A DNA stretch of 64,000 nucleotides, taken from assembly GCA_041490525.1 (NCBI GenBank), contig JBGPTH010000004.1, forward strand, positions 17,635 through 81,634, written 5' to 3'. The position numbers were made by a program, and so were the translations under genes. Each line of letters opens with the position of its first letter. The stretch's first letter is position 1. Below, piece after piece: positions 12,034 through 64,000 of this stretch. The notes below the pieces were generated by a model. The model had not been told where the DNA came from. It was given only the letters and a program-made list of their open reading frames with translations, and searched no databases. Source of the stretch: Nitrospiria bacterium (lineage in GTDB: Bacteria > Nitrospirota > Nitrospiria > Nitrospirales > NS-4).

Positions 12034-12579
12034 TCAACCTTCTTCCCGTTCCCAGTTCACCCGCACCAGCTTGTCCCGGTGGGCCCAATGGTAACTGGTT
12101 TTGCCCTTAAACGCTCGCTCCATCTCCCGCCCCATCCGCTGGGCCAGCTTGGTATTCGTGGTGAACACGCGCAATTCCTTCCCGTCGTCCTCGATCTTCA
12201 TAATCCGCTCCAGGGGATTGACCTCCTGCGCCCGGGCCGCTTCGTTATGCAACAGGCCGAGGACATCGCGCCGGTGCTCGGGGAGGCCGGGCCACCGCAA
12301 CGTCAGGACTCCATCAGGATAGCGGTCATGGACCTTGACACACGCCGGGCAGATGACCGCTTTGGTCCGTTTCTGGGAGACCAATTTCACGGACGCCGGC
12401 TCGTCGAATCGCCACCGTTTTTTCTCATAGATCGCATGACACTCCTTACAGACGGCGGGACCCGGCTGGGCCCCCCGAACGGCATAAGGATCCGGCTGCT
12501 GGCCGGCCAGACGACGCGGGTTGGAGACAAGGCGTCTCCCCTGCTTCCCGGCCGCTTTCCCGGTTCGCTTTCTTGACAT
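12034..12579 (-). CDS. BCAM0308-family / NMD3-like zinc-ribbon protein
   Basis: 181 aa with CKEC...CPAC motifs. Clear paralog of 31974-32477 (shared DKYP.G.LTL...NEEARA...P..RIM.IE...). Family name is from memory. Confidence 0.6.
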   Translation of the reverse strand: MSRKRTGKAAGKQGRRLVSNPRRLAGQQPDPYAVRGAQPGPAVCKECHAIYEKKRWRFDEPASVKLVSQKRTKAVICPACVKVHDRYPDGVLTLRWPGLPEHRRDVLGLLHNEAARAQEVNPLERIMKIEDDGKELRVFTTNTKLAQRMGREMERAFKGKTSYHWAHRDKLVRVNWEREEG

Positions 12580-12613
12580 ATCTGGCCTCCTTCCTAATCT
12601 TCGTGCTGATCAA

Positions 12614-12629
12614 CGCAAAGGTAGTACCA
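12614..12629 (-). promoter_or_regulatory. Sigma-54 promoter TGGTACTACCTTTGCG
   Basis: GG-N10-GC spacing is exact. Followed by a 33-nt leader containing GGAAGGAGG and ATG 12579. Confidence 0.55.
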
Positions 12630-12712
12630 GGAGCCCTCCGAGGGCGGGCAAAAAATTTCAGACCTGAATCATACGGTTATTGGTAGAGCACGTCGAGCGG
12701 TGAGGCATTGGT

Positions 12713-12734
12713 GACGCCAATTGCCCCAGACCCG
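12713..12734. promoter_or_regulatory. Candidate upstream activator element (copy A)
   Basis: GACGCCAATTGCCCCAGACCCG. The 13-mer TGCCCCAGACCCG is identical to 53649-53661, and GCCAATTGCCCCA is identical to 62245-62257. Lies 93 nt upstream of the -24 element. Confidence 0.4.
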
Positions 12735-12884
12735 TTGAAAGATTTCGTCCCGAAATTCCTCAGCGGACACCGACGCCGGTTCAGATTAAATCAGGCGTGG
12801 GGCATACGGGCGGGATTGTACCAGAATTCAGGTGCCCGTTGTGTTGACACGGCAAGAAGTGAAGTCTAGTCTTAGCTTCCTGGA

Positions 12885-13235
12885 TTGCTGGGTAGAGAAA
12901 AGGTGTCTGGAACCGTCTTTCAAATGATCTTTATCATTGTGCTTTGGTTCTCTTTCTTCGGACTTGCGCCTACTCAGGCGGCTGATCGGGGCTCGGCGTT
13001 GCAGTCGCCGGAACAACCCCCAGGCCCTTCCCAAACGTACCGCTCAATCACGCTCCGCATGACCAAGGAAGAAGTCCACCGATTGATGGGAAAGCCGTCC
13101 CGGTCAACCGATACGCTGTGGCTCTATACGTATGCGGATGGGACGACCGTGGAGGTCATCTTCTCGAAGAAGAGGCGCGTGACCCAGGTTGTCCATTATA
13201 AGAAGCAGCAGCAGTTCCCTCCGAAAGGGAAGTAA
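12885..13235 (+). CDS. Small secreted protein, SmpA/OmlA (BamE)-like (hypothetical)
   Basis: 116-aa ORF with a hydrophobic N-terminus (MIFIIVLWFSFFGLAPTQAA if started at 12924) and MTKEEVHRLMGKP. TTGACA-N17-TAGTCT lies about 40 nt upstream. Confidence 0.5.
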   Translation: MLGREKVSGTVFQMIFIIVLWFSFFGLAPTQAADRGSALQSPEQPPGPSQTYRSITLRMTKEEVHRLMGKPSRSTDTLWLYTYADGTTVEVIFSKKRRVTQVVHYKKQQQFPPKGK

Positions 13236-13251
13236 CAGAAACCGCATTGGA

Positions 13252-14064
13252 TCAGAATCCGATCGACAGCCCGACAGTGCCGAACACCGCAGATCGGTCG
13301 GAAGGCCCGGCGAACTCGGTTCCTAGGCCCCCATCCAATACGATTCGCGAGCTGAACTGATGGCGAAGTCCCACCTCGATTCCGGTGGGATTGCGGCCCC
13401 CGCTGAGGTCCGACTGGCGGGTGAACACGTCCGCGATCAGCGTTTCTCGGAACCGCATGGGATATCCTAGCGGATAACTCACGCCCAAAGCCAGGCGGTA
13501 CAGTCCATCGCGCTCTCCTCCTCGAGCGGAGCCCACGACCGTGTACTCCACATTAAGATGCGTCCGCCAACGGCCGAATGAGCGCGTCAGAATGCCGGCC
13601 AGCGTGCCATCCACGCCCTTTGAGCGAACGCCGGTCGGAAACTCCAGGTCGAGCTTCACGGCCAGCGCCGGCAGACTGAGCGTCTCCGTGTTGAGGTTGT
13701 ACAGGACGCCGACACGCACGTCTCCGGACTTCTCGGCACCTTCCACCGAAGTCGGCTCCGTAACCAGGTCTCCGCCGATCTCAAGCTGCGTGTTATAGAA
13801 CGCTCCGTACAGCACTTGCGGCTGGAACACGAACCGGGTTCTCCCCTGCCGCCGGTCCACGAATCGGGCACCACCCTCCAGGCCAAACTCGCCCTTTGCT
13901 AAAGGATACGCATCCTCGATCCGGAGCGGGCGGTTCTTGTCGAGGTTGTCGTGATCAAGCGCCCAGGCTGGCGGGAGGCCCAGACAGAGAAGGAAGGTTA
14001 CAATACTGAGCAGGCAGCCTCGCATCAGGCATGCCAGCCTTTCATTGTTTCTCATGCCGGTCAT
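13252..14064 (-). CDS. Putative outer-membrane beta-barrel protein
   Basis: 270-aa ORF with a signal-like MRGCLLSIVTFLLCLGLPPAWA, alternating beta-strand pattern and terminal Phe (LSIGF). Start is uncertain (14064, 14055 or 14025). Confidence 0.5.
   Translation of the reverse strand: MTGMRNNERLACLMRGCLLSIVTFLLCLGLPPAWALDHDNLDKNRPLRIEDAYPLAKGEFGLEGGARFVDRRQGRTRFVFQPQVLYGAFYNTQLEIGGDLVTEPTSVEGAEKSGDVRVGVLYNLNTETLSLPALAVKLDLEFPTGVRSKGVDGTLAGILTRSFGRWRTHLNVEYTVVGSARGGERDGLYRLALGVSYPLGYPMRFRETLIADVFTRQSDLSGGRNPTGIEVGLRHQFSSRIVLDGGLGTEFAGPSDRSAVFGTVGLSIGF
14021..14036 (-). promoter_or_regulatory. Sigma-54-like 16-mer TGGCATGCCTGATGCG (anomalous position)
   Basis: Matches the promoters at 24840-24855 and 43003-43018 at 14 of 16 positions each, but overlaps candidate start ATG 14025 of the beta-barrel ORF. 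Confidence 0.3.
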
Positions 14065-15010
14065 GCTTCATTTCTTGTTTCTGCCCGATCATCGGATTCG
14101 TGGCGTCGGCGCTCTCGAGATAGTAGCTGTCCAGGATCCGGTAAATTTCCGCCCGCTTGGCTTCCCGGGTGGGGAATAGATCACTGACCAAAATGTCGCT
14201 GATGTTGTCGTGGAGCATGTGGAGGTTATCGAAGATGTTCGCGATCTCGGGATAGCGGGCCGCGAACTTCGGGCTCAATTCGGCCGTCAGGGGCATGAAG
14301 GTCCATTCCACCGGCGGCCGCTGGAGATATCCATGGTACATCATTAAGATAGGCCGCACGACCGTCCGCTTGGCTGCCAGGTCCGGAGCGGCTTGCAGCA
14401 CGTCATACACGGCGACTTGGAGGTAGTGATAGGCCCAGATGGTGGCGTTGAAGAGCGGGAACTTCCACCGGAAGGCCTTCGAATACGGAAACTGGTCGAG
14501 GCGGCGGTGGTCCAGTCGTTGAGCGGTAATCGCGTAGGGGCTCTGCCGGTAGAAGGCCAGGGCCTCCTGGAGCGCGGCGTTTTTGTCGGTGATGATGGCG
14601 GAGACGTAGATGTCGTACGTGGCGCGGTGCAGTGCATGCGCTTCATCGAAGGCGTTCTGCGCGCGCCAGGCCAGCTTCATGTAGGTGGGGGCGATCGCCT
14701 CTTCGTTCGGCGGAAGGACCGGTCTCGACGCAATGAACCGCAGGGTCTGCCCGCGCGCCTCCTCTTCGACGGCCGGGACGCTCTTGGCGCCGGTGACCAG
14801 CAAAGTCTCATAAAGATGCGAATGGCCGAAGTCCACGCCGTTGAACTCGATGTCGAGCTCGGGAAGATCGTCGCGAAGCGCGAAGTTCCAGACGGCCCGG
14901 TCATAAAACCGCTTGTCGCGCGGCTCGAATTGGGCTGGCACGATCGAAGCGGAAAGCGCCGCAAGAGCCAGCAGGAATATCAGAATAGCAAGCAAGCGAT
15001 CAGGCCGCAT
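14042..15010 (-). CDS. Secreted hypothetical protein
   Basis: 322-aa ORF with signal peptide MRPDRLLAILIFLLALAALSASIVPA. No family recognised. Confidence 0.5.
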   Translation of the reverse strand: MRPDRLLAILIFLLALAALSASIVPAQFEPRDKRFYDRAVWNFALRDDLPELDIEFNGVDFGHSHLYETLLVTGAKSVPAVEEEARGQTLRFIASRPVLPPNEEAIAPTYMKLAWRAQNAFDEAHALHRATYDIYVSAIITDKNAALQEALAFYRQSPYAITAQRLDHRRLDQFPYSKAFRWKFPLFNATIWAYHYLQVAVYDVLQAAPDLAAKRTVVRPILMMYHGYLQRPPVEWTFMPLTAELSPKFAARYPEIANIFDNLHMLHDNISDILVSDLFPTREAKRAEIYRILDSYYLESADATNPMIGQKQEMKHDRHEKQ

Positions 15011-15111
15011 GGCGCCTCACCTCTTTGGATTCCTGGACTGGATACCCTTACGTCTGTGGCTGACTGAACTGCCTCACTGAGGAAGGGAGTGCCGCCAGAC
15101 GGACAAAGACC

Positions 15112-15996
15112 CTACCGCCTGAACACCAGCACCGAACACGGGGCGTATTTGATGACGCCGTCGGAGACGCTGCCCATGAGGAATCGGGTGGTGCCGGAGA
15201 GCCCGCGGGAGCCGACGACGGCCAGATCGGCGCGCTCGGCCTCGGCCAGTTTCACGATCTCGTGGCTCGGATGTCCGTGCACAACCGCGGTGCTCACCTG
15301 AAAGCCAGCCTTTTCGATGCGCTCGGCAGCCTGCTTCGCGATCGTATGGGCCTCTTCGATGAACGGGGCCCGCACCCGGTCGAGAAGAGCCCCCTCCAGC
15401 GGCGGTTCCATCGAGGCCTCGATCGGGAGCGGAGGGACGACCGAAACGACCGTCAGGTGGGCCGCTTCCGGCAAGGGCATCTGAAGGAGAAACTCGAGGC
15501 CGGCCCGCGCGTCCTTGGAAGCATCCATGCCCACGACGATCCGTCTGAGCACCGGCACCCGCTTCTTGACCAGCAGCACCGGACAGCCGGCGTGCACCAC
15601 GACCTTGCGCGACACGCTGCCCAGCAGGAAGGCCCGGACATCCGTCAGCCCCCGCGAGCCCATCACGATCATGTCGGCTTTCAGCTTCGCCGCCGTCCGC
15701 ACGATGCTCTCGGCCGGGTGCCCGCGCACGAGGCGGCTGTCCACGGTTCCCCAAACAGGAGAGAGCGCGGCCTTCTCGCGCGCCAACACGGTCCGGCCGG
15801 TCTCCTCCGCCAGGCCCAGCGCCTGCCTCATGGCGTCCTCGGCCCCCTCCCCCGCTCCCCGGTGGGGCTTGTACTTGGCGGTGTCCACCATGTGCACGAG
15901 CACCAGCGCCGACCCCCGAGGAAAGGGCCAGCGCCGCAGCGCCTCCAGCGCCCACTTCGAATGCTTCGATCCGTCCACCGCGCAGAGGACCTTCAT
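15112..15996 (-). CDS. Universal stress protein, tandem Usp domains
   Basis: MKVLCAVDGSKHS... plus a second domain VVGMDASKDA... Both have G-x2-G-x9-G(S/T)V ATP-type motifs. ATG 15996 is preceded by AGGAGA. The track start is 16023. Confidence 0.85.
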   Translation of the reverse strand: MKVLCAVDGSKHSKWALEALRRWPFPRGSALVLVHMVDTAKYKPHRGAGEGAEDAMRQALGLAEETGRTVLAREKAALSPVWGTVDSRLVRGHPAESIVRTAAKLKADMIVMGSRGLTDVRAFLLGSVSRKVVVHAGCPVLLVKKRVPVLRRIVVGMDASKDARAGLEFLLQMPLPEAAHLTVVSVVPPLPIEASMEPPLEGALLDRVRAPFIEEAHTIAKQAAERIEKAGFQVSTAVVHGHPSHEIVKLAEAERADLAVVGSRGLSGTTRFLMGSVSDGVIKYAPCSVLVFRR

Positions 15997-16015
15997 GCCG
16001 GATGCTCTCCTGCCC

Positions 16016-17044
16016 TTAGTCACGCTCGTTCATGTAGGCCGCCGTCTCCTCCGGCACCGCGGTATTGATGAAGATGCCGGACCCGATCTCGAACCCCGCG
16101 ACGGTGGTCAGGCGAGGGATGATGCACAGATGCCAGAGGAAATAGGGCTTGTTCTCGTCCTCGATGGGGGCCGAGTGGACGACAAAGTTGTAGTCCGGGT
16201 CGTTGAGATGCCGAGAGATCTTTGAAAGGACAGCCGCGAGGACCCGGGCGAACCGCTTGGCCTCGTCCGTCGAAATCTGCCCGAAGGAGGGGACGTGGTG
16301 GGTCGGGGCGATCCAGGTCTCGAACGGCGAGCGCGAGGCGAAGGGATGGAAGGCGACGAACCCCTCCCCTTCAAAGACCACCCGCTCCTTCGCCTTCCGC
16401 TCCTCCTTCACCACGTCGCAATAGATGCACCCGCCGGTGTCGTCGTAGTACTGGGTGGCCACCGTGTATTGGGCGCGAAGGTGCTCCGGAACGATCGGCG
16501 TGCCGACGATCTGGGCGTGCGGATGCACGAGGGACGTCCCGGCCGCCTCCCCATAGTTCTTGAACAGGATGACGGCCTTCACGGAGGGGGCCTCACCGAG
16601 CGCCAGGTACCGGTCCCGGTACATGAGGACGGCTTCCTGCGCCTGGTGATCCGACAGGAGGGCGAACGGCAGGTTGTGCGCCGGGGTTTCGATGATGACC
16701 TCGTGCCGGCCGACGCCGGCCATCCGCCGGAAATAATGGTCGCCGCTGCGGTCACCGGAGGCCTCGGGAGCGAGCGCCGGGAACCGATTGGGGACCACCC
16801 GCACCCACCACCCGGGCGCGTTCGGGCTGCCGACCCGAAAGGCGGCCACTTCGGGCGGGGTCGATGCCTCGTTGCCGGGACAGAAGGGGCAAGACGGGTC
16901 GGAGGCCGGGCGCTCAGGAGGCTCTCTCCGGGACCGGAACTCGTCCGGTCGCCGGGCGCGATCCCGGGCAATGATCACCCACTCCTTCGTGAAGGGATTC
17001 TGGCGCAGTTCAGACATGGGCGGGCGGATTGTCTCACAGGGCAT
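16016..17044 (-). CDS. galT: Galactose-1-phosphate uridylyltransferase-family (GalT/HIT-like) nucleotidyltransferase
   Basis: CPFCPGNE zinc motif and HPHAQIV active-site HxHxQ motif. Start uncertain (17044 or 17017). Confidence 0.75.
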   Translation of the reverse strand: MPCETIRPPMSELRQNPFTKEWVIIARDRARRPDEFRSRREPPERPASDPSCPFCPGNEASTPPEVAAFRVGSPNAPGWWVRVVPNRFPALAPEASGDRSGDHYFRRMAGVGRHEVIIETPAHNLPFALLSDHQAQEAVLMYRDRYLALGEAPSVKAVILFKNYGEAAGTSLVHPHAQIVGTPIVPEHLRAQYTVATQYYDDTGGCIYCDVVKEERKAKERVVFEGEGFVAFHPFASRSPFETWIAPTHHVPSFGQISTDEAKRFARVLAAVLSKISRHLNDPDYNFVVHSAPIEDENKPYFLWHLCIIPRLTTVAGFEIGSGIFINTAVPEETAAYMNERD

Positions 17045-17129
17045 TCGGGAATGCCAGGCTCGCGCGAGGCGTCCCTTTCCATCGCAGGCTCAACAAGGGT
17101 AGAATACCGGAATTCTCGGAGCCTGGATC

Positions 17130-17783
17130 ATGCACGAACACTACCAGATCAATGTGTTGGCCAAGGAGGAATCGTGGCGTCTGTTTCGGATCATCGGCGA
17201 GTTCGTGGAGGGCTTCGACGCGCTGCCCAAAGTCCTTCCCGCCGTGACGATTTACGGAAGCTCCCGGGCCGACCCCGGCACGTGGGCCTATGCGACCGCC
17301 GAAAAGACCGCGCGCGCCCTGGCCCAGAAGGGCTTCTCGATCATCACGGGGGGCGGGCCCAGCGTAATGGAGGCGGCCAACAAGGGGGCCTTCGAGGGCG
17401 GGGGGAAGTCGGTTGGCCTGAACATCGACATTCCGGTGGAGCAGGTCTCGAACCGCTATACCACGCTCTCCCTGAAGTTCCACTACTTCTTCGTCCGGAA
17501 GGTCATGCTGGTCAAGTACGCGACCGCCTTCATCCTGTTCCCGGGGGGATTCGGGACGCTGGACGAGCTCTTCGAGATCGCCACCTTGATCCAGACCGAA
17601 AAGCTCCAACCCTTTCCGGTAATTCTAATGGGACGGTCGTACTGGAGTGGGCTCCTGGAATGGCTCCGGACCCAGGTGGTCGGCCACGAGTTTCTGGACC
17701 CGTCCAGTCTCGACCTGTTCACGATCACGGACGATGTCCAGGAGGTGGTGACCATCATCGAGAATTGTTGTCGCCCCACCTGA
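17130..17783 (+). CDS. LOG-family / TIGR00730 Rossmann-fold nucleotide-binding protein
   Basis: GGGPSVMEAANKGAFEGGG and PGGFGTLDELFE motifs. Confidence 0.8.
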   Translation: MHEHYQINVLAKEESWRLFRIIGEFVEGFDALPKVLPAVTIYGSSRADPGTWAYATAEKTARALAQKGFSIITGGGPSVMEAANKGAFEGGGKSVGLNIDIPVEQVSNRYTTLSLKFHYFFVRKVMLVKYATAFILFPGGFGTLDELFEIATLIQTEKLQPFPVILMGRSYWSGLLEWLRTQVVGHEFLDPSSLDLFTITDDVQEVVTIIENCCRPT

Positions 17784-17833
17784 ACGCTCTTCGAGGGTTG
17801 CGACGGAGAGAAGAGACGAGGGGTTCCAGTTAA

Positions 17834-19642
<1,809 letters not shown>

Positions 19643-19666: not shown

Positions 19667-20209
19667 TCAGGAGATCACCGGCAGGGGGTTGACGGTCGTC
19701 GCCTGGGGCCCTTTTTCTCCCGGTTCGAGATTGAAGACCACTTCCACGCCGTCCTCCAGGGCCTCAAACGTCAGGCCGTGCAGCGCGTTCTTATGAAAGT
19801 ACACCTCCCCGCCCCCTTCCCTCAGGATGAACCCGTACCCCTCCTGAGGGAACAGCTTGCAGATCACCCCGCGCAGCGGCGGAACCGGCGGGGTCCGCAC
19901 CTCGGTCGTAGCGCGCTTCCCGCGGAACTTTTGCAACTCGATGTCCACCGACAGGAAGGCGGCGCGGATGGCCTCCTCGAAGGTCTTTTCCTCTTTCCTG
20001 GCCGTGATCGTGTGCCGGCCGGGCAGCGTCACCACCACCAGCGCTTCCGCCACCCGCCGGTCCTTCTTATGGTGCAGATTCTTCGTCAGGGTCACCCGCC
20101 CGTGGAGCAGGTCGTCATGGCCCGCCTGCAGGTCGGCCATCCTTTCCTCGACCTCCGTCTTCCATCTCGGCGTCATCGCCACATTCCGGCTCTCAATATG
20201 CAGTTCCAT
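19667..20209 (-). CDS. HPF/RaiA ribosome-hibernation domain fused to a cold-shock domain
   Basis: The N-terminal ~100 aa are RaiA-like (MELHIESRNVAMTPRWKTEVEERM...). The C-terminus is CSD-like (GYGFILREGGGEVYFHKNAL...GEKGPQATTV). Confidence 0.7.
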   Translation of the reverse strand: MELHIESRNVAMTPRWKTEVEERMADLQAGHDDLLHGRVTLTKNLHHKKDRRVAEALVVVTLPGRHTITARKEEKTFEEAIRAAFLSVDIELQKFRGKRATTEVRTPPVPPLRGVICKLFPQEGYGFILREGGGEVYFHKNALHGLTFEALEDGVEVVFNLEPGEKGPQATTVNPLPVIS

Positions 20210-20279
20210 CGCTCCTCCTCGGCCTCCCGTTGTTGAACTGGATGATCAGGATAAGTCCCCCAAGAGTCAACCCCCCGTC

Positions 20280-21377: not shown

Positions 21378-21447
21378 GTGCCTCCTCCCCAACCTGCCGC
21401 ACGGATCGATATGAGGATCGCCCCGGCCGTTCGAAGTTCCCTCAAGG

Positions 21448-21999
21448 TCACTTCCGACAGCGATAAGGGGTGAGCGCGCCGGACTGCGCTTCCCGCTCCA
21501 GATCCTCGATGGTCCGGTCCGTGAGCACCGAGGTTTCGCACGTCTCGGTGATCTCGGTGCCCGGACGCGCCTCCTCGTCCTGGTTCTTCACCAGCAGCCA
21601 CTGCCGGGGGCGGCCCTTCATCCGGATCAGGGAGAACCGGCCCTTGAGCCGCCGCCCGTGTAGGATGACATCCAGCTTGCCGGCATCCGCCATCGCCTCC
21701 GCGGCGGCGCCGGCCTTCTCCCCCGCCGCGGGCTCAAACCAGCCGGTGTCCCAAACCAGCACGGGCCCGGCTCCGTATTGGCTCTCTTCGATCACACCCT
21801 CGAAGTCGGCATACTCAAGGTCATGGTCCTCCACTGCCACCGCCAACCGTTTCACCGCCGGATCCAGGGACGGGCCCTTGGGAATCGTCCAGGACTTGAG
21901 GACGCCGCCGATCTCCAGCCGGAAATCATAATGCAGATGGGAGGCCTTGTGTTTCTGCACGTTGAAGATCGGCCGCCTGGCTCTGGGGGATCCGCCCAT
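21448..21999 (-). CDS. LigD-type 3-prime phosphoesterase (PE) domain protein, stand-alone
   Basis: QKHKASHLHYDFRLEIGGVLKSWTIPKGPSLDP is the hallmark of the LigD PE domain. No ligase or polymerase domain is attached. Confidence 0.8.
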   Translation of the reverse strand: MGGSPRARRPIFNVQKHKASHLHYDFRLEIGGVLKSWTIPKGPSLDPAVKRLAVAVEDHDLEYADFEGVIEESQYGAGPVLVWDTGWFEPAAGEKAGAAAEAMADAGKLDVILHGRRLKGRFSLIRMKGRPRQWLLVKNQDEEARPGTEITETCETSVLTDRTIEDLEREAQSGALTPYRCRK

Positions 22000-24125: not shown

Positions 24126-24144
24126 GGTGGACCGGAGAATTGCG

Positions 24145-56219: not shown

Positions 56220-56470
56220 CCTCGCGCAGCCAGATACTCGACGCAGCCGTTCAGGGTGGCCATCTTCGGATAGTCGGCCTCGGGGATCTCCACGTGCAGC
56301 GCCTCGTGCACGGCGATCACGAAGTTCAGAAAGTCCATCGAGTCGATGTCCAGTTGGTCGCGGAAACTCACGTCCGGCTTAATCCGGGTGAGGTTCGCCT
56401 CCGGCGCGATCTCGCCGAGGATGCGGAGCACGGTGCTCCTGATCTCGTCGGTCGTGAGCTTCGGCGTCAC
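56216..56470 (-). CDS. Acyl carrier protein (stand-alone)
   Basis: 84 aa read from a GTG that overlaps the E2 stop (GTGA): [62 protein letters not shown], with a DSM phosphopantetheine site. In the track it is hidden inside a 269-aa over-extended ORF. Confidence 0.7.
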
Positions 56471-57690
56471 AGCCGACCCGGCTCCTGCAGCAGGCGGTCC
56501 ACGGCCGCGAGAAACAGCCCGCCGCGATGGCCGTCGGTGACCCGATGGTCGGCCGACAAGGTGGCGGTCAGCACGGACCGCGGGACGATCTGCTTGTCCA
56601 CGACCCAGGGACGCTCGACCATCTTGCCGAAGCCGACGATCGCGACCTGCGGCGGATAGATGACGGCATAGACCGACTCGACGCCCTGCTCGCCGAGACT
56701 GGTCACGGTGATGGTCGGGTCGGACAACTCGGAGCTCCGCAAGCCGCCGGCGCGAGCGCGCGTCACGAGATCCCGGAAGTTTCGCATGAGGTCGTCCAGT
56801 CTTTGGCCGTCGGTGTCGTGCAGGGCAGGCGCCACGAGACCTCCGGACCGCAAGGAAATCGCCACGCCGACGTGAATGGCGTCGCTTCGCACCACGTCGT
56901 TCCCTTTCCACCGCGCGTTCAGCTCGGGCACCTCCCGCAGGGCCAGGGCCACCGCCTTGAGAAGCAGGACACCGTAGAGCAGGCGATCCTTCGTGGGACG
57001 CTTGAGGTTTTCTTCTGTAAGCCAAGCCAATGCCTTGCTCATATCGATAGTGGTGCTCACATAGTAATGGGGGATCTCCCGCTTGGAGCGGGCCATGGCG
57101 GCCGCGATGGCCTGCCGCATGCGAAGCAGGCGATCGTCCGCTTCGCCGGCTCGTGGCACGGGGCTAGGGGCTATAGGTGGTTCTCGTTCTCCACCTCTCG
57201 CCTCTTGCCTCGTGCCTCGTGCCTCCGCGACGCGCAAGACATCGTCGCGGCTGATCCCGCCGCCGGGACCAGTGCCCTTCACGAGGATGAGATCAACCCC
57301 CAGCTCGGCCGCCAGTTGCTTCGCCGAAGGTGAGACGCGGAGACGCCCAGGTTCGGTGACAGGAGCCTGTGGTGTCGGTGACACGGGTGCAACGGCAGGT
57401 TGAGGCGGCGCCCCTGCGACCGGCGGCGCCGGCTTTGGTTCCGCGCTCGGCTTGCCTTCCTCGCGGATAATGGCCAGCGCGGTGCCGACCGGCACCTTCG
57501 TCATCGGCTCGACGAGCGTCTTCTCCAAGAGACCGGTCATGAAACTTTCAATCTCGATGATACCCTTGTCGGTCTCCACCTCCGCGATGATGTCACCCTT
57601 CTTCACGGCCTCGCCTGGCTTCTTCAGCCAGGCGACCAGGGTGCCGGCCTCCATGTCCGCCCCGAGGGAGGGCATGACGAATTCAGCCAT
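56467..57690 (-). CDS. 2-oxoacid dehydrogenase E2 (dihydrolipoamide acyltransferase)
   Basis: Lipoyl domain ([14 protein letters not shown]), E3/E1-binding domain ([15 protein letters not shown]) and catalytic DHRVTDG. Confidence 0.85.
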
Positions 57691-58660
57691 GCAGCATCTC
57701 TTGCACGGTCTTCACGATGGCGGCTGCCTGGGGCAACGCCGCGTCCTCCAGATGCTTCGGGTAGGGCATCGGCACTTCGGCGCTGCACACGCGCGCCACG
57801 GGGGCATCGAGGTCGTAGAAGGCGCCTTCCATGATCCGCGCGCTGATCTCCGCCGCAAAGCTGCCCGTGCGCCAGGCCTCGTCCACGATCACGGCCCGAT
57901 GGGTCTTCCCCACGGAGGCCAGGATCGTCGGCGTATCCAACGGCCGGAGCACGCGGAGATCGATGACCTCGGCCTCGATCCCGGAGGAGGCAAGCTGGTC
58001 GGCGGCTTCCAGCGTCTTCCACAGCGACCCCCCGAACGTGATCAGGGTGACATCGGTGCCCGGCCGGCGCACCGCCGCCGTTTTGATGTCCACGGGGCCG
58101 GCATTGTCATCCAGTTCCCCTTCCATGGGATAGAGCATGGCGTGCTCAAAGATGAAGACCGGGTCCGGCTCGCGGAGCGCGGTCAGCAGCATCCCCTTCG
58201 CGTCGGCCAGCGTCGCGGGGGTGACCACCTTGATTCCGGGAATGTGCGCATACCAGCCCTCCAGGCTGTGGGAATGCTGCGCCGCGACCTGGCGCCCCGC
58301 GCCCGTGGCCATGCGGACGATGAGCGGCACGCTGAACTGGCCGCCGGACATGTGCCGGATGGCGGCCGCATTGTTGACGATTTGGTCCAGGGCCAGCAGG
58401 CTGAAGTTCACCGTCATCACCTCGACGATCGGCCGCATCCCGCCGAGCGCCGCGCCGATGCCGGCCCCGACGAAGGTGGACTCCGACAGCGGCGTGTCGC
58501 GCACCCGCTCGGGCCCGAACTCTTCCAGGAGCCCGTGGCTGCACGCGTAGCTGCCGCCGTAGCGGCCGACGTCCTCCCCCATGAGGAAGACGCGCGGGTC
58601 GCTCGTGAGCGCCTCCCGAAGCCCGGCCCGCACCGCCTCGCGGTACTTCATCTTGATCAT
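57683..58660 (-). CDS. 2-oxoacid (pyruvate/acetoin-type) dehydrogenase E1 beta subunit
   Basis: [30 protein letters not shown] is a typical E1-beta N-terminus. Confidence 0.85.
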
Positions 58661-59646
58661 GGCGTGTACACGTCCCTGGTCAGCTCCTCGACGGGCTCCC
58701 AGGGGCCGGCTTCCGCGAAGGCGACCGCGTCCGCGATCTCCGCGTCCACGGCCGCTTCGATCGTGGCCCGATCCGCATCCTTGAGGAGGCCGTCCTCGCG
58801 AAGCCGCTCTTCAAACGTCACGATCGGATCGCGCTTCTTCCACTGCTCGACCTCCTCCTTGTTCCGGTAGAGTTCCGGGTCGTACATCGAATGGGCGCGG
58901 AACCGGTAGGTCCGGAATTCAATCAGGTACGGCCGCATCTCCCCTCGGACGATCTCTACGGCCCGTCGCGTGGCGTCCTCGACCGCGAGCACATCCATGC
59001 CGTCCACCGCCTCGCCCGGCACGCCGTCGCCTTTCGCCTTGAGCGTGATGTCGGTCTGGGCCTGGTGCCGGGCCAGGGCCGTCCCCATCGCGTACAGGTT
59101 GTTCTCGCAGAGAAAGAGCACGGGCAGCTTCCAGAGTGCGGCGAGATTGAGCGATTCGTGAAACTCCCCCTCCGCCACCGCGCCGTCGCCGAAGAAGCAG
59201 GCGGTCACGCGCGCCCGCCCCTGGAGCTTGTCGGCGAGGGCCAGGCCGACCGCGACCGGCAGGCCCCCGCCCACGATCGCCAGGCCGCCGTAAAAGCGCC
59301 GCGCGGCGTCGAAGAAATGCATGGACCCCCCGCGCCCGCGGCTGCAGCCGTTGGCCTTCCCGTACAGTTCCGCCATCAGCGGCCCTGCCGGCGTCCCCCG
59401 CACGAGCGAGTGCCCGTGCTCGCGATAGGTAGCGACGATGGCGTCATCCGGCGTGAGCGCCTGGATCGCGCCGACCGCCACGGCTTCTTCGCCTATGTAT
59501 AAATGTAGGAACCCGCGGATCTTCCCGGCGCTGTACAACTCCACCGACTTCTCCTCGAAGCGGCGGATGCGCAACATCTCATGAAACAGCTTGATCCCAT
59601 GCGCGCGATCCAGAGGCGGCTGGCCCGCTTCCACGAAGCAGTCCAT
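58657..59646 (-). CDS. 2-oxoacid dehydrogenase E1 alpha subunit (TPP-binding)
   Basis: LRIRRFEEK...[11 protein letters not shown] and GDGA..EG.FHE.LN.A TPP motif. Confidence 0.85.
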
Positions 59647-61440
59647 TCAACTTCCCTCCAACGTCGACGTGTCCCCCTCGGGCAGCCCAAGTTCACGGGC
59701 CTTGAGCAACCGCCGCATGATCTTCCCGCTCCGGGTCCTGGGCAGGGTCGCCAGGAACTCGATCTCCTTCGGCGCGACCACCGCGCCGAGCCTGGTCCGG
59801 GCAAATCCCAACAACTCGCGCCGCAGCTCGGGGGTCGCCTCGTACCCGTCCTTGAGCGAGACGAACGCCTTGACCACCTCCAGCGCCACCGGGTCGGGCT
59901 TTCCGATCACGCCAGCCTCGGCCACCGCCTTGTGCTCCATCAACACGCTCTCGACCTCAAACGGCCCGATCAGATGCCCGGAGGTCTTGATCACGTCGTC
60001 CGTGCGCCCGACGAACCAGAAGTACCCGTCCTTGTCCCGCTTGGCGAGATCGCCGGTGAGATACCAGCCGCCGAGGAAGCATTTCTGGTAGCGCTCCGGC
60101 TCGTTCCAGTAGCCCCGGAACATGGACGGCCATCCGGGCTTGAGCGCCAGCTCGCCCTGGACGTCGGCCTCCACGATTTCTTCGACCCCGCCGTCGGCGG
60201 TCTTCCGCACGACCGCCGCCTCAATTCCCGGCAGGGGCCGGCCCATCGACCCGGGCCGGATATCCATGGCGGCGTAGTTGGCGATCATGATCCCCCCCGT
60301 CTCGGTCTGCCACCAATTATCGTGGAACGGGAGCCCGAATGCCCGCTGGCCCCAAACGACGGCTTCGGGGTTGAGGGGCTCGCCGACGCTGGCAAGGAAG
60401 CGGAGCGTGCGGAGGTCGTATTTATGGATGGGGTCGAGGCCTGTCTTCATCATCATGCGGATGGCGGTCGGCGCGGTGTACCAGACGGAGACGCGTTGGT
60501 CCTGGAGGATGCGGTACCAGCGCTCGGCGTCGAAGTCGGCTTCATCCACAATGCTGGTGATCCCGTTCGTCAAGGGGGCGATGACGCCGTACGAGGTGCC
60601 GGTCACCCAGCCCGGATCGGCCGTGCACCAGAAGACATCGTCCTTGTGCAGGTCCAGAGCGAGCTTGCCCGTGATGTGGTGGGCAACGACTGCCTGGTGG
60701 ACGTGGACTGCGCCTTTGGGCGTGCCGGTGGTCCCGCTGGTGAAGTGCAGCAGCGCCCTGTCTTCCGGAGCGGTCGGCCCGATCGTGAACCGGTCGGACG
60801 CTTGCTCCATCAGCCGAAGATAGTCGCGCGTGCCGGCCACATCGGTCGGCTGGTGATCGTCCCCGACGAGGAGGACATGCTCAAGGTCGGGCAAGGAGGC
60901 GCGCAGCCCCTCCACCTTGCGATGGTAGAGCGACTCCGTCGTAACGAGGACCTTGGCCTGGCCGATCGTCATCCGTGCGCGGATGGGCTCGGGCCCGAAG
61001 GCCGAGAACAGGGGGCAGAAGACGCTCCGGTGTTTCAGCGTCCCGAGGGCGGCGATATAGAGCTCGGGAATCCGGCCCGCCAGGGCATACACCCGATCCC
61101 CGGGGGCCACGCCCAGCCCGTGCAGCACGTTGGCAAAGCGGTTCGTGAGGTCCCGAAGCGAGGCATAGGTGTAGTCCCGGACCTCGCCGGTCTTGCCAAG
61201 CCACCGCAGCGCGAGGTGGTCCCGGCGGGCGTGCGCCGCGTGACGATCAACCGCCTCATGGGCGATATTGAGCCCCTTTTCGCCCGGAAGGCCGTCCAGT
61301 TCGCGGCGGGCGCGGTCCCAGGAAAAGGCCGCGCGGACCTGGCCGTAGTCGTGGAGATTCGGGATGACCGCCCCCCAGTCCCGCCGTGATTTTATGATCG
61401 TCTCCCAGCCCATCGTGTGAGCTGTCTCCGGATGAATCAT
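59647..61440 (-). CDS. AMP-forming acetyl-CoA synthetase-like ligase (AcsA type)
   Basis: 597 aa with an AMP-binding signature ([12 protein letters not shown]), a C-terminal SGKIMRR and an AcsA-like N-terminus ([10 protein letters not shown]). Its stop abuts the E1-alpha start with no gap. Confidence 0.8.
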
Positions 61441-62105
61441 CCGCGTGCGGGCTTGTCCCGCCCGCGCAAGGCCGCAGCGGCCTCCTTCAGGTATCGGACG
61501 ACGGTCGCATCATCCACCTGCCTGAAATCCGCATAGTGATTGCCGACGGCGAAGAACGGGTCCGGCGTCTCGAGGACGACCACCTCATCCACGGTCTTTC
61601 CGACCAGGCGAATCGTATCAGGGGGGGCCACCGGGATCCCCGCCACCAGGCGTTTCACGTGAAGCTGCCGGAGCGCCTCGGCCGACGCCAGGAACGTGGC
61701 CCCCGTGGCGATCCCGTCATCGACCAGCAACACCGTTCGTGCAGTCAGGTCCGGCAAGGGTCGCCCGCCCCGGTACAGGACTTGCCGCCTGACGATCTCT
61801 TCCTGTAAGGCCCGCCGGGCTTGTTCCACATACTCGGCGGGAATCATGTACGCCTCGATCGCGTCCCGATTGAGATGGATCGACCCGGTCTCGGCCACCG
61901 CGCCGAGGGCGAATTCCGGATTGTCCGGAGCCCCCAGTTTGCGCGTGATGAATACATCCAGAGGGAGGCCCAGGGCCAGGCTCAGCGTATAGCCTACCGC
62001 CACCCCGCCCCGGGGCAAGGCCAGGATGAGGGCCGTCGGATCATTCCGATAAGCGCTCAACCGCTTTGCCAGCAGCCGGCCTGCTTCTTCGCGATCTTGA
62101 AACAT
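61437..62105 (-). CDS. Phosphoribosyltransferase-family protein
   Basis: [16 protein letters not shown]...ILALPRGGV and [17 protein letters not shown] motif. ATG 62105 is chosen because the track start at 62138 lies inside the sigma-54 promoter. Confidence 0.75.
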
Positions 62106-62133
62106 CGGCGCTCCGCGTTCAGGTTCCTGTTTG

Positions 62134-62149
62134 AGCAAGGCCAGTGCCA
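62134..62149 (-). promoter_or_regulatory. Sigma-54 promoter TGGCACTGGCCTTGCT
   Basis: The best consensus match in the window (TGGCAC-N5-TTGCT), 28 nt before ATG 62105. Confidence 0.7.
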
Positions 62150-62241
62150 GAGGGCCCTTCCAATTCGGTCCCCAATCCTATATTGTTTCAACCGGTTAAC
62201 GAGGAGCCATTCAAGAGGAAGACTAACGTGAACGGCAGCCT

Positions 62242-62263
62242 GTTGCCAATTGCCCCAAGAGGG
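62242..62263. promoter_or_regulatory. Candidate upstream activator element (copy B)
   Basis: GTTGCCAATTGCCCCAAGAGGG shares GCCAATTGCCCCA with 12716-12728. Lies 102 nt upstream of the -24 element. Confidence 0.35.
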
Positions 62264-62399
62264 TTATAGCATAGCGCCCCGAAAATCCCCATTGGGTGCG
62301 GCGGCCAAACCGGCGCCGATGAGCAATGCGCACTTAAATAAAGGGTATTTGCCGCGCGTATAGGTTTTGCATAATCCCATCCATCCAGAAGGGAACGTG

Positions 62400-64000
62400 A
62401 TGCCACCTCCTGAGAAATTCAAACTTCCCGTCGACATGCTGGCGCCCGTCGTCGAACCGGCCCGCCTGGGTTTTTCGACCACCGGCGAACTGGCACCGCT
62501 GGACGAAACGATCGGGCAGGCCCGCGCCGTGGAGGCGTTGGAGTTCGGCCTGCGCATGGAAAGCGTGGGCTTCAACATCTACGTATCGGGACCGGTCGGG
62601 GCCGGCAAGACGACCCTCGTGCGGGAGATGGTGAAGCGGCTGGCCCTCTCGGCCCCCCCGCCTCCCGACTGGTGCTACGTCAACAACTTTCTGGATCAGG
62701 CCCGGCCCTGTTGCCTCTCGTTCCCGGCGGGCCAGGGCCGGCAGTTCCAACAGGCGATGGCCACGCTGATTCAGGGCCTGCGCCGCGACATCCCGAAGAC
62801 CTTCGAGGGCACCAAGTACCTCGAGGCAAAGGCGGGGATCGTCGAGGACATCGAGGGAAAAAAGAAGGCGCTCTTCAAGGAGCTGACCGAGCTGGGCCGC
62901 CTCCAGGGGTTCGGCTTTGAGGAGACCCCGTTCGGGTTCACCATGTTTGCCCTGCGCGGCGGCCGGCCCTTGAAGGGGTCCGACCTGGAGCGGCTCTCCG
63001 AGAGGGAGAAGGCGGAGATCCTGGAGCGGAAGAAAGCCCTGGGGGGGGAGATCCTGGACTTCAAGGTTCGCCTCCATGCCCTGGACCACGAAGGCGAGAA
63101 CCGCCTCCGCGACATGGATCGTCAATGGGTGGAGAACGTGCTGGAGGGCCGGATCGAGACGCTGCGGCGGTCCTATCAGGGCCAGCCCGAGGCTCTGGCC
63201 TATCTGGATCGGGTCCATGAAGATATCGTCTCCACGTACAAGGACTTCCTTCCGCGCGAAGCGCCGGCCCTGCCGATCCCGGGCCTGGAATCGCTGAGCC
63301 GCCCGCCCGAGCTGACGCGGTATCAAGTAAACCTGATCGTCGAACACGCGGAGGGCGCCGGGGCCCCGGTGGTGGAAGAGTCGCATCCCACCTACGCGAA
63401 CCTGATCGGGAAGATCGAGCGCAAGGCCCACCTGGGGGTGGTGTTCACGGACTTCACCGAAATCAAGGCCGGCGCCATCCTCCAAGCCAGCGGCGGCTAT
63501 CTAATCCTGAACGCCCTGGATTTGCTCCGCCAGCCTTTCGCGTGGGACGCCCTCAAGCGCGCGATCAAGACGCGGGCGGTCAAGATCGAAGATCCGGGCG
63601 AGTTCTTCGGCTTTTCGACGACCGGCCTCAAGCCGCAGCCGGTTCCCGTGAACGTCAAGGTGATCATGGTCGGCTCGCCGATTTTGTATAACCTGCTCCA
63701 GGCCTACGAGGAGGACTTTCAGAAGATCTTCAAAGTGAAGGCCGACTTCGACCAGGAGGTGAACCGCGACGAGAACCAGGACAGACTCTACGCCCGGTTC
63801 GTGGCCCGGATCTGCCGGGACGAGGGGCTGCCGCACTTCGATGCCGAGGCCGTCGCGGACTTGATCGCCTACGGCACCCGCCTGGCTGAACGACACGATC
63901 GGCTGTCGCTGCGGTTCAGCCTGGTGAGCGACGTGGTCCGGGAAGCGGCGTTCTGGGCGCACGGGGCTGGGCGCACGCTGGTGTCGCGGGCCGATGTGGA
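62400..64000 (+). CDS. Lon-related AAA+ ATP-dependent protease, N-terminal ~533 codons (continues past the right edge)
   Basis: Absent from the ORF track because it is open at the edge. Hand translation from ATG 62400: MPPPEKFKLPVDMLAPVVEPARLGFSTTGELAPLDETIGQARAVEALEFGLRMESVGFNIYVSGPVGAGKTTLV... (Walker A), later GGYLILNALDLL (Walker B-like). Confidence 0.7.
   Translation, partial: MPPPEKFKLPVDMLAPVVEPARLGFSTTGELAPLDETIGQARAVEALEFGLRMESVGFNIYVSGPVGAGKTTLVREMVKRLALSAPPPPDWCYVNNFLDQARPCCLSFPAGQGRQFQQAMATLIQGLRRDIPKTFEGTKYLEAKAGIVEDIEGKKKALFKELTELGRLQGFGFEETPFGFTMFALRGGRPLKGSDLERLSEREKAEILERKKALGGEILDFKVRLHALDHEGENRLRDMDRQWVENVLEGRIETLRRSYQGQPEALAYLDRVHEDIVSTYKDFLPREAPALPIPGLESLSRPPELTRYQVNLIVEHAEGAGAPVVEESHPTYANLIGKIERKAHLGVVFTDFTEIKAGAILQASGGYLILNALDLLRQPFAWDALKRAIKTRAVKIEDPGEFFGFSTTGLKPQPVPVNVKVIMVGSPILYNLLQAYEEDFQKIFKVKADFDQEVNRDENQDRLYARFVARICRDEGLPHFDAEAVADLIAYGTRLAERHDRLSLRFSLVSDVVREAAFWAHGAGRTLVSRADV

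Follow-up and report, generated by a model that had tools for sequence, protein, structure and literature searches.

A cluster of stress-related genes with predicted sigma-54 promoters and conserved upstream boxes in a Nitrospiria bacterium

We analysed a stretch of 64,000 nucleotides from a Nitrospiria bacterium (GenBank assembly GCA_041490525.1, contig JBGPTH010000004.1, positions 17,635 to 81,634 of the forward strand), hereafter called the window. From about 11.6 kb to beyond its end at 64 kb, the window holds a cluster of genes for universal stress proteins (Usp), the small heat shock protein Hsp20, a ribosome hibernation promoting factor (HPF), two members of the BCAM0308 family, proteases, P-type ATPases and nucleic acid repair proteins. 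An earlier note on this DNA had likened the region to the lxa (low-oxygen-activated) locus of Burkholderia cenocepacia and to the DosR regulon of Mycobacterium tuberculosis. Here we document its gene content, its architecture of sigma-54-type promoter motifs and upstream boxes, and their conservation in other Nitrospirota.

Gene content and phylogenetic setting

Genes were called by codon-position G+C and cross-checked against public gene calls, and every candidate open reading frame (ORF) was scanned against Pfam and NCBIfam. All gene classes listed in the earlier note were recovered at or near the positions it had given. They include six Usp genes (five tandem, one single), in which Pfam recognised the 11 domains as two stretches per tandem copy, and separate genes for a phosphoribosyltransferase (PRTase, 61437-62105) and a dienelactone-hydrolase-like (DLH) protein (24145-24825). 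The Usp copies are paralogues according to all-against-all BLASTP. Beyond that list, we identified genes for FtsH, LOG-family and GalT/HIT-family proteins, the RNA 3'-phosphate cyclase RtcA, a LigD 3'-phosphoesterase (LigD-PE), a PolX-like protein, a methionine adenosyltransferase (MAT), two radical-SAM proteins, CheR, two trypsin/HtrA-type proteases, bPH_2 and DksA/TraR proteins, as well as PEBP, a Mut7-C RNase, a response regulator, a J-domain ORF, MacB/HlyD, VIT1 and a c-type cytochrome.

The G+C content ranges from 58 to 69% across the window, and no tRNA genes, Rfam families at gathering score, integrase or transposase domains or compositional break were found in it. Nothing in the region marks mobility, and since tRNA genes, integrases, transposases and a compositional break are absent, 'cluster' is a better word than the 'island' used previously. 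A tblastn search with all window proteins against 80 loci fetched via the BCAM0308 family gave the best and most syntenic matches to metagenome-assembled genomes (MAGs) of Nitrospiraceae and Nitrospira, with Nitrospiraceae identities of 78-85% for the acetate-CoA ligase, 81-85% for E1 beta, 59-77% for Hsp20 and 54-69% for the PRTase. The nearest homologues of nearly all window genes are in Nitrospirota at 60-85% identity. Among the database relatives of the hydrolase with a named organism, the best 120 belong without exception to Nitrospirae/Nitrospirota, and by these best matches the organism is a member of the Nitrospirota, probably of the Nitrospiraceae. Identical proteins place the window on metagenomic contigs: JGI 3300053057 Ga0534150_0000182, a 130-kb contig of sample 3300052991, and contigs of the MAGs GCA_041498675.1 and GCA_041493045.1. 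A megablast search against plasmid records matched only the FtsH gene, at 72-78% in Burkholderia and Ralstonia, and no annotated near-relative.

Predicted sigma-54 promoters

We scanned the window for sigma-54 promoter cores in two ways. Nine matches were obtained with the consensus TGGCAC-N5-TTGC when at most one mismatch was allowed. A weighted score with obligatory GG and GC dinucleotides and a cut-off of at least 19 yielded 11 cores of the -24/-12 type as compared to 1.8 +/- 1.5 in first-order Markov shuffles, a 6-fold excess. Ten of the 11 cores are located 15-93 nt upstream of co-oriented start codons, and given that 7.6% of the strand positions qualify as such, the binomial probability is 7e-11. 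The eleven cores span 24.8-62.1 kb, with a twelfth, weaker one at 12.6 kb. The ten placed cores and the twelfth are listed here.

62134-62149, minus strand: TGGCACTGGCCTTGCT, 29 nt upstream of the PRTase start
53532-53547, minus strand: TGGCATTTCTCTTGCG, 70 nt upstream of Hsp20, orthologous position kept in 17 Nitrospirota loci
43003-43018, minus strand: TGGCATGCATGATGCA, 29 nt upstream of Usp 42111-42974
37051-37066, minus strand: TGGCATTTCTTTTGCG, 40 nt upstream of PEBP
35500-35515, plus strand: TGGCATTCCCCTTGCG, ahead of the CBS-pair protein 35572-36000
35245-35260, minus strand: TGGCATTTCTTTTGCC, ahead of the response regulator
31866-31881, plus strand: TGGCATCGGTTTTGCG, ahead of BCAM0308-family protein 2
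31598-31613, minus strand: TGGTATTGCCCTTGCT, ahead of the bPH_2 protein
28177-28192, plus strand: TGGTATCGACCTTGCA, ahead of the triple-BON protein 28230-28955
24840-24855, minus strand: TGGCATGCGTGATGCA, ahead of the DLH hydrolase operon
12614-12629, minus strand: TGGTACTACCTTTGCG, weaker (score 18), ahead of BCAM0308-family protein 1

The PRTase and the hydrolase are thus each the first gene behind a predicted sigma-54 promoter of their own, in agreement with the earlier note. The eleventh core (47334-47349) lies inside an ATPase gene and is doubtful. A candidate at 14021-14036 (score 18.5) was rejected because its -12 element runs into the sole start codon that is plausible there. No sigma-54 cores were found in the first 12 kb, which contain genes for RND efflux systems, or in flanks of 8-10 kb beyond both ends of the window. 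In BCAM0308 loci, the density of sigma-54-like sites is about three times as high in Nitrospirota as in proteobacteria.

Upstream boxes and their conservation

We searched exhaustively for 12-mers shared between the stretches that lie 30-200 nt upstream of each core. Boxes of the CTGTGGCATTTC type were present in 9 of the 11 promoter regions, corresponding to 7 independent intergenic regions, and are mostly situated upstream of the -24 element at a distance of about 110-127 nt. Over the whole window there are 14 matches with at most two mismatches against 4.7 expected, eight of which fall in the seven promoter-upstream intergenic regions. A second box, TGGGGCAATTGGC, is identical in the regions upstream of the PRTase and BCAM0308-1 genes.

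We then took 17 Nitrospirota loci with a sigma-54 core ahead of Hsp20 and aligned the sequences upstream of this core; in all of them the core and two conserved blocks, boxes A and B, precede an Hsp20(-PRTase-BCAM0308) operon. In this alignment box A is TGRGGYAWTTGGCAACAG and the reverse complement of box B is TGnGGnnTTTCGGGnCAG, and there is an additional CTAAC block about 50 nt upstream. The box A consensus, which was derived without the PRTase region of the window, matches window positions 62240-62257 with 0 mismatches, while 0.17 matches are expected at up to 3 mismatches, and it also matches positions 12711-12728. Box B' matches seven of the regions upstream of sigma-54 cores in the window. 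The boxes in the window are as follows.

62240-62257, minus strand: PRTase promoter, box A TGGGGCAATTGGCAACAG, match to the cross-genome consensus
62274-62291, minus strand: PRTase promoter, box B' TGGGGATTTTCGGGGCGC, match to the cross-genome consensus
53673-53688, minus strand: Hsp20 promoter, TGTGGCATTTCAGGAC, plus a degenerate TCTGGGGCAGGGTGCGCC box, within 53650-53688
43069-43086, minus strand: Usp 42111 promoter, box B'
35385-35402, minus strand: shared box TGTGGCGTTTCAGTAC in the divergent response-regulator/CBS intergenic region
31730-31745, minus strand: shared box TGTGGCTTTTCACTAC in the divergent bPH/BCAM0308-2 region
28085-28096 and 28141-28158: BON promoter, box-like sites
24935-24946 and 24963-24980, minus strand: DLH hydrolase promoter, boxes
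12711-12728 and 12745-12762, minus strand: BCAM0308-1 promoter, box A and box B', respectively

Judged from their sequences, the conserved boxes are the phylogenetic footprint of a putative enhancer-type site. It follows from their conservation across genomes that the organism studied here appears to have spread one predicted promoter-plus-enhancer module over many operons.

Operons and individual genes

Tight spacing between genes defines the operons. The genes are given here from the right end of the window to the left, with weak or fragmentary assignments marked as such.

62364-64000, plus strand: LonB/LonC-like AAA+ protease, running past the window end (802 aa with Lon_C on the longer contig)
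53700-62105, minus strand: seven-gene operon with gaps of 1-24 nt or overlaps of 4-8 nt
61437-62105 and 59647-61413, minus strand: PRTase and acetate-CoA ligase (NF003313, 931 bits), at the head of this operon
58657-59646, 57683-58660 and 56467-57690, minus strand: pyruvate dehydrogenase (PDH)-type E1 alpha, E1 beta and E2, same operon
56216-56470 and 53700-56219, minus strand: acyl carrier protein-like protein of 84 aa and MgtA-type P-type ATPase (TIGR01524, 800 bits), same operon
53007-53462, minus strand: Hsp20 (Pfam E 2e-28)
52098-52985, 51555-52085 and 50308-~51270, minus strand: tandem, single and tandem Usp, following Hsp20
51288-51491, minus strand: zinc-ribbon-like ORF of 67 aa between the Usp genes of the Hsp20 unit
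47171-50008, minus strand: type II P-type ATPase, below every subfamily cutoff
45624-46973 and 44357-45589, minus strand: HlyD-type adaptor and MacB-type permease without ATPase domain
43781-44275 and 43408-43704, minus strand: VIT1-like protein and c-type cytochrome
42111-42974, 41718-42101 and 40203-41357, minus strand: tandem Usp, J-domain ORF and HtrA-type protease with PDZ domain
41440-41862, minus strand: C-terminal fragment of an amino-acid kinase
39074-40171, plus strand: AmmeMemoRadiSam-type radical-SAM protein (TIGR04337, 659 bits)
38445-38597, minus strand: divergent 6S (SsrS) RNA candidate
37628-38053, 37110-~37580 and 36535-37011, minus strand: PDZ-like protein of 141 aa, Mut7-C RNase and PEBP
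36005-36515, minus strand: ORF of 103 aa and THUMP-like fragment downstream of PEBP
35572-36000, plus strand: CBS-pair protein
34758-~35219 and 34406-34711, minus strand: single-domain response regulator and GYD protein, one operon
33527-34390 and 33219-33530, minus strand: tandem Usp and ORF of 103 aa, same operon
31974-32477, 32501-32848 and 32873-33097, plus strand: operon of BCAM0308-2, DksA/TraR zinc-finger protein and ORF of 74 aa
31065-31544, 30148-31026, 29793-30041 and 28939-29772, minus strand: operon of bPH_2, trypsin-like protease, ORF of 82 aa and CheR-type methyltransferase
28230-28955, plus strand: triple-BON protein
27743-27994, 26795-27499 and 25716-26765, minus strand: ORF of 83 aa, YkuD L,D-transpeptidase and RtcA
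25025-25714, plus strand: DUF2459 protein
19667-24825, minus strand: six-gene hydrolase operon
24145-24825, minus strand: DLH-like hydrolase (weak but above cutoff, 27.4 vs 21 bits)
23238-24125, 22033-23241 and 21448-21999, minus strand: PolX-like helix-hairpin-helix protein, archaeal-type MAT and LigD-PE
20280-21377 and 19667-20209, minus strand: AmmeMemoRadiSam-like radical-SAM protein and fusion of HPF to a cold-shock domain (HPF-CSD), at the end of the hydrolase operon
17130-17783 and 17834-19642, plus strand, divergent: LOG-family protein and FtsH paralogue
16016-17017 and 15112-15998, minus strand: GalT/HIT-family protein and tandem Usp
14042-15010 and 13252-14064, minus strand: unknown protein of 322 aa and MetA-like outer-membrane protein
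12034-12579 and 11561-12004, minus strand: BCAM0308-1 and cupredoxin-like protein

No sigma-54 core was found in 25025-27994 and no strong one in 13252-19642. The PRTase matches the TT1426 family (E 3e-35), and the PolX match of the PolX-like protein is confined to its N-terminal 150 residues. The scans found no E3 gene alongside the PDH-type E1 alpha, E1 beta and E2 genes. The Hsp20-Usp-Usp-zinc-ribbon-Usp genes form an operon that possibly continues into the type II ATPase gene.

Several features of individual genes are recorded here in their own right. The genes for the HlyD adaptor and the MacB permease are 35 nt apart with no gene for an ABC ATPase, and the permease matches only the permease half of MacB; the counterpart in Azospirillum has a separate ATPase gene between the two. 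The uncalled ORF at 41718-42101 encodes a clear DnaJ J-domain (E 1.8e-27) and shares 145 nt, read in another frame, with the ORF at 41440-41862, whose product has just the C-terminal half of an amino-acid kinase fold. The overlapping pair (41440-42101) represents either a frameshift or a gene remnant. At 37047-37706, the public annotation places a 194-aa ORF with no domain on the plus strand. A Mut7-C RNase domain (E 1.9e-39) is encoded on the other strand (37110-37706), so the strand of the public call is probably wrong. Likewise, the segment 36005-36545 on the minus strand contains two overlapping ORFs in different frames, one of which weakly matches THUMP (E 2.7e-6) and is 56% identical to a Nitrospira locus, and may be a frameshifted gene.

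The two radical-SAM paralogues, 20280-21377 on the minus strand and 39074-40171 on the plus strand, are 42% identical to each other and score 342 and 659 bits, respectively, against TIGR04337; no AMMECR1 or Memo partner gene was found in the window. The non-coding segment 38690-39000 (plus strand) upstream of the latter folds better than 100 of 100 shuffles (z -3.6) with no Rfam match, and may be an unknown leader or riboswitch-like element. To the left of the cluster, positions 1-11438 (minus strand) are occupied by two paralogous CusCBA/Czc-type RND efflux sets in tandem, the components of which are 61%, 46% and 37% identical. A third P-type ATPase gene and another c-type cytochrome gene are located left of the window beyond these sets (locus L093 in our numbering), and unrelated genes lie to the right, past the Lon-like gene.

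Ribosome-linked factors

The S30AE domain (PF02482) of the HPF-CSD protein scores 38.6 bits (cutoff 23.7), and the protein aligns over its full length to the solved 183-aa 'ribosome hibernation promoting factor' 9t0z (9t0z_9; E 5e-13). The score against TIGR00741 is below the cutoff (21.6 vs 40.9). A cold-shock domain at the C-terminus replaces the usual dimerisation domain of long HPF, and this architecture occurs near BCAM0308 in seven other loci.

Both BCAM0308 copies pass the equivalog model NF040826 (lxa_BCAM0308; cutoff 100) with 139.6 bits for copy 1 and 218.2 bits for copy 2. Copy 2 also matches Pfam NMD3 (E 7.7e-8, 32.6 bits vs cutoff 24.9), while copy 1 is just below the cutoff. The four cysteines of the predicted N-terminal zinc ribbon are invariant, and the family is present in at least 583 GTDB species representatives. 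In an AlphaFold model (AF2, pLDDT 83), the top six Foldseek matches in the PDB were all to yeast Nmd3 on the pre-60S particle, and these were weak (E 1.4e-3, TM 0.45). The modelled likeness to the Nmd3 fold agrees with the Pfam match and is only a lead. Of 82 loci, 31 have Hsp20 and 27 have the PRTase within 10 kb of BCAM0308. In Burkholderia stagnalis (locus L007, 20001-22358), the gene directly after the BCAM0308 homologue encodes an FtsH paralogue with 51% identity to the window FtsH at 17834-19642, and this arrangement suggests that BCAM0308 and FtsH form a functional pair.

The 6S RNA candidate at 38445-38597 sits in a 770-nt non-coding gap within the cluster. Its match to RF00013 is sub-threshold (34.1 bits, gathering score 46.4, E 2e-5) and spans only positions 59-134 of the model, and its minimum free energy fold has a 6S-like outline with a closing stem around a large bubble (z = 0). 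No 6S match was found in three other Nitrospira loci.

Interpretation and alternatives

The explanation that we favour, with a probability of roughly 60%, is that a chromosomal cluster extends from about 11.6 kb to beyond 64 kb, comprises 11 or more sigma-54 transcription units, probably under one bacterial enhancer-binding protein (bEBP), and encodes a programme for survival of growth arrest. From the motifs and boxes we infer that sigma-54 and a single bEBP drive these units. The bEBP would be encoded elsewhere in the genome and would bind to the TGnGGnnTTTCGGGnC / TGRGGYAWTTGGCAACAG-type boxes about 50-130 bp upstream of each -24/-12 core, such that the units would be transcribed by sigma-54 RNA polymerase and switched on jointly by a growth-arrest signal. 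Because of the analogy to lxa and DosR and the low-oxygen proteomics of Nitrospira marina described below, we infer energy or oxygen limitation to be the trigger; a link to oxygen or hypoxia is plausible.

In such a programme, ribosomes would be silenced or protected by the HPF-CSD protein, the NMD3-like BCAM0308 proteins, the DksA-type zinc finger and possibly the 6S RNA, while damaged proteins would be held or degraded by Hsp20, the J-domain protein, FtsH, LonC and the HtrA-type proteases. The RtcA, LigD-PE, PolX-like and Mut7-C RNase proteins would heal RNA and DNA ends. The 11 Usp domains, the CBS protein and the PRTase with the DLH hydrolase would sense or bind nucleotides, the two P-type ATPases, MacB/HlyD and VIT1 would maintain ion homeostasis, and the acetyl-CoA synthetase (Acs) and PDH E1/E2 would supply acetyl-CoA.

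Some observations weigh against this explanation. There is no recognisable sigma-54 core for the GalT-Usp-outer-membrane-protein, LOG-FtsH and YkuD-RtcA units, the ATPase gene at 47-50 kb, the radical-SAM gene at 39074 or the Lon gene, and every promoter call rests on motifs. No rpoN gene and no bEBP gene with a GAFTGA motif was found in the window, its 8-10 kb flanks or the Nitrospirota loci; among the loci compared, GAFTGA-type bEBP genes were present in only two, both proteobacterial. The first 16-mer box, TGTGGCNTTTCASNAC, is essentially absent from 82 other loci at up to 2 mismatches, and the order and orientation of the boxes differ between the window and other Nitrospirota. Finally, the Hsp20 proteins of N. 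marina are not induced at low oxygen (PMC8115632).

Alternatively, the cluster might respond to ion, metal or envelope stress rather than to dormancy or hypoxia; its sigma-54 units would then serve cation homeostasis and quality control in the periplasm, with Usp and Hsp20 as generic passengers. The cluster adjoins the two CusCBA/Czc-type RND sets (1-11,023), with the third P-type ATPase and the cytochrome c further left, the BCAM0308-1 unit runs toward the RND genes, and within the cluster there are MgtA-type and type II ATPases, VIT1, a cupredoxin-like protein, MacB/HlyD, HtrA, YkuD and BON. However, the RND genes have neither sigma-54 cores nor boxes, the core conserved elsewhere in Nitrospirota is Hsp20-PRTase-BCAM0308 with Usp and Acs-PDH and no metal genes, and genes for ribosome hibernation, RNA repair and cytosolic proteases fit poorly with a pure envelope or metal role. 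We therefore regard this alternative as unlikely.

Much less probable, and largely refuted, is that the cluster is a true lxa orthologue, that is, a horizontally acquired island under an FNR/Anr-type regulator. Two proteins pass the lxa_BCAM0308 model, the published lxa table (Table 4 of PMC3721108) has six Usp, Hsp20, PEBP, LOG, cytochrome c, ABC/HlyD and cation ATPase in common with the window, and an lxa-like cluster with a Crp/Fnr regulator is present on an Azospirillum plasmid. Yet no CRP/FNR domain was found in any window ORF, and only a single FNR box (TTGAT-N4-ATCAA, at most one mismatch) is present in the window, inside a gene, with no good box in any promoter region. While the nearest homologues are in Nitrospirota at 60-85%, the Burkholderia and Azospirillum relatives of BCAM0308 and Hsp20 are only 34-50% identical, the B. 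stagnalis locus shares with the window only BCAM0308 and the adjacent FtsH paralogue, and the tRNA genes, mobility genes and compositional break of an acquired island are lacking. Loose FNR-like palindromes (at most two mismatches) are in three-fold excess, 35 vs 11.2 expected, and are mostly located inside genes and not in promoters.

Accidental co-location of the genes with chance sigma-54-like strings in a GC-rich genome is already refuted statistically: the scan was a simple consensus score, some units have no site and one site (47334-47349) is inside a gene, but the excess over shuffles, the placement and orientation of 10 of the 11 sites, the promoter and boxes conserved across 17 genomes and the exact match to the cross-genome consensus all speak against it.

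Nitrite oxidation in soils, waters and wastewater plants is chiefly the work of Nitrospira, which must outlast frequent interruptions of oxygen and substrate by means that are poorly understood. For these bacteria, the locus offers a concrete and testable regulon with a defined promoter type, conserved boxes and a compact list of effectors. It is of interest chiefly for the conserved sigma-54 enhancer module and for a specific hypothesis on the uncharacterised BCAM0308 family, namely that of an NMD3-like protein acting on ribosomes. More speculatively, and with low confidence, Nitrospirota and perhaps many lithoautotrophs of oxic-anoxic interfaces might have a sigma-54/bEBP 'translation shutdown and repair' programme in which BCAM0308 is an NMD3-like large-subunit factor. 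If so, BCAM0308 would act together with HPF-CSD, the 6S-like RNA, the DksA-type zinc finger and the RtcA/LigD-PE/PolX-like end-healing set, and lxa and DosR-type loci would be lineage-specific rewirings (FNR, DosR, sigma-54) of one ancient dormancy toolkit. That the lxa/DosR toolkit recurs in a distant phylum, here with promoters predicted for another sigma factor, supports a widely shared dormancy toolkit with interchangeable regulatory wiring.

Comparison with known systems

The comparison with lxa was made via the published table, the NCBIfam model and the B. stagnalis and Azospirillum loci; a B. cenocepacia replicon matched in the plasmid collection gave no BCAM0308 match. The lxa locus of B. 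cenocepacia J2315 (BCAM0275a-BCAM0323; Sass et al. 2013, PMC3721108) contains genes for six Usp, Hsp20, two PEBPs, a 'lysine decarboxylase', cytochrome c551/552, ABC and outer-membrane transport, a cation ATPase and response regulators, along with polyhydroxyalkanoate synthesis, AckA/Pta, alcohol dehydrogenases, class II ribonucleotide reductase, ribokinase, nitroreductase and a sulphate transporter. Both clusters are about 50 kb in size, have six Usp genes and comprise several operons, co-regulated in lxa and predicted to be so here, with a shared promoter motif. Hsp20, PEBP, the LOG-type 'lysine decarboxylase', cytochrome c, an ABC/HlyD/outer-membrane transporter, a cation P-type ATPase, response regulators and the BCAM0308 family are found in both. 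The lxa promoters have an Anr/FNR-type TGA-N6-TCA motif and CRP/FNR regulators are encoded in the locus (PMC3721108), whereas the window has sigma-54-type promoters and bEBP-style boxes. Polyhydroxyalkanoate synthase, AckA/Pta, alcohol dehydrogenase, class II ribonucleotide reductase, ribokinase and nitroreductase were not found in Pfam scans of all window ORFs, and the sulphate transporter of lxa is likewise missing. Conversely, HPF-CSD, RtcA/LigD-PE/PolX-like, archaeal-type MAT, radical-SAM, LonC, HtrA, CBS, GYD, BON and Acs-PDH are not in the published lxa table. The overlap with lxa claimed previously thus holds for protein families, including both BCAM0308 copies, and is not supported for membership, as neither an FNR regulator or box nor the metabolic hallmarks are present.

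A cluster resembling lxa on plasmid p05 of Azospirillum sp. TSH58 (NZ_CP022369.1), with a Crp/Fnr regulator, has eight genes in common with the window. Identities are 48% for the MgtA-type ATPase, 38% for HlyD, 40% for the MacB permease, 46% for the PRTase, 34% for Hsp20 and 50% for BCAM0308, and the shared set also includes c-type cytochromes, an acyl-CoA ligase and two Usp genes. The Azospirillum cluster differs in being plasmid-borne, in its Crp/Fnr regulator, histidine kinase, PpsA, PncB and phosphoribosyl pyrophosphate synthetase genes and in showing no enrichment of sigma-54 sites.

For the DosR regulon we used PDB chains of its proteins. A tandem Usp aligns full-length to Rv2623 (2jax/3cis; E 2e-10) and the CBS-pair protein to Rv2626c (1xkf/1y5h; E 4e-11). 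Common to both are tandem Usp, alpha-crystallin/Hsp20, a CBS pair, a type II cation ATPase (cf. CtpF), PRTase and hydrolase (cf. Rv0571c) and an HPF-like factor. The M. tuberculosis regulon also includes the RNA-repair gene RtcB (Rv2631), and the window has RtcA. For a PRTase-hydrolase link of the Rv0571c type, as proposed in the earlier note, the support is indirect: Rv0571c has a PRTase annotation and a length of at least 339 aa, JGI labels DLH-only homologues 'putative phosphoribosyl transferase', and in four loci from other taxa the two genes lie side by side. No DosR/DosS/DosT-type gene, histidine kinase or LuxR-type helix-turn-helix was found in the window, the sole regulator of which is the single receiver-domain protein, and the DosR box (GGGAC-N4-GTCCC core, at most one mismatch) gave 3 matches vs 5.9 expected, none of them in promoter regions. 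The hallmark genes nitroreductase, NarK2/NarX, NrdZ, Tgs1, FdxA and PfkB were not found in Pfam scans of the window ORFs. The regulon is scattered in M. tuberculosis and depends on a NarL-type activator of sigma-70 promoters, in contrast to a single cluster with predicted sigma-54 and bEBP control in the window. Since the similarity is only at the family level, it may reflect convergent recruitment. The cluster shares protein families with lxa and the DosR regulon and is probably not an orthologue of either. A large share of its genes (RtcA, LigD-PE, PolX-like, MAT, two radical-SAM, FtsH, LonC, HtrA, CheR, DksA-type zinc finger, Mut7-C and Acs-PDH) has no counterpart in either published gene list.

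The RNA-repair operon rtcBA of Escherichia coli depends on RtcR and sigma-54, and in the window a gene for RNA 3'-phosphate cyclase is likewise found in a stress context under predicted sigma-54 control. It differs in that the window RtcA gene has no detectable sigma-54 core of its own, is accompanied by neither RtcB nor RtcR and follows the gene for the YkuD transpeptidase.

Within the genus Nitrospira, two UspA proteins of tandem size increase 263-fold and 5.7-fold, and a CBS protein 4-fold, in N. marina Nb-295 at low oxygen (Bayer et al. 2021, PMC8115632). A response regulator of the NtrC family (sigma-54-dependent), encoded beside the most induced Usp, increases 4-fold under these conditions (PMC8115632). 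The induced clusters differ from the window in holding POR, hydrogenase and similar genes, and that study included no promoter analysis (PMC8115632). Sigma-54-dependent regulators are already known at the NXR operons in Nitrospira (PMC7522533). We found no published description of the present cluster or its promoters in the literature.

The closest true relatives are the Hsp20-PRTase-BCAM0308 / Acs-PDH / Usp-cytochrome c clusters of other Nitrospiraceae (MAG loci L027, L039, L043, L045, L056, L074 and others), which have the same sigma-54 core and boxes A and B upstream of Hsp20. In twelve Nitrospirota loci (L025, L027, L043, L060, L064, L065, L070, L075, L076, L077, L080 and L084), a protein of 65-87 aa with the motif SPGC...CP(D/G)L(T/S)WNQVF..(L/V)DR(L/M)SR comes first behind the sigma-54 promoter, ahead of Hsp20, and dodecin-like and YtxH-like small proteins, named by eye, also follow sigma-54 sites in these loci. 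In these Nitrospiraceae clusters, one predicted sigma-54 promoter drives the small SPGC...TWNQVF protein, Hsp20, PRTase and BCAM0308. In the window, by comparison, the small protein is missing, the PRTase has moved to the head of the Acs-PDH-MgtA operon, BCAM0308 is duplicated with a predicted promoter for each copy, and the promoter-plus-box module is present in at least 11 units.

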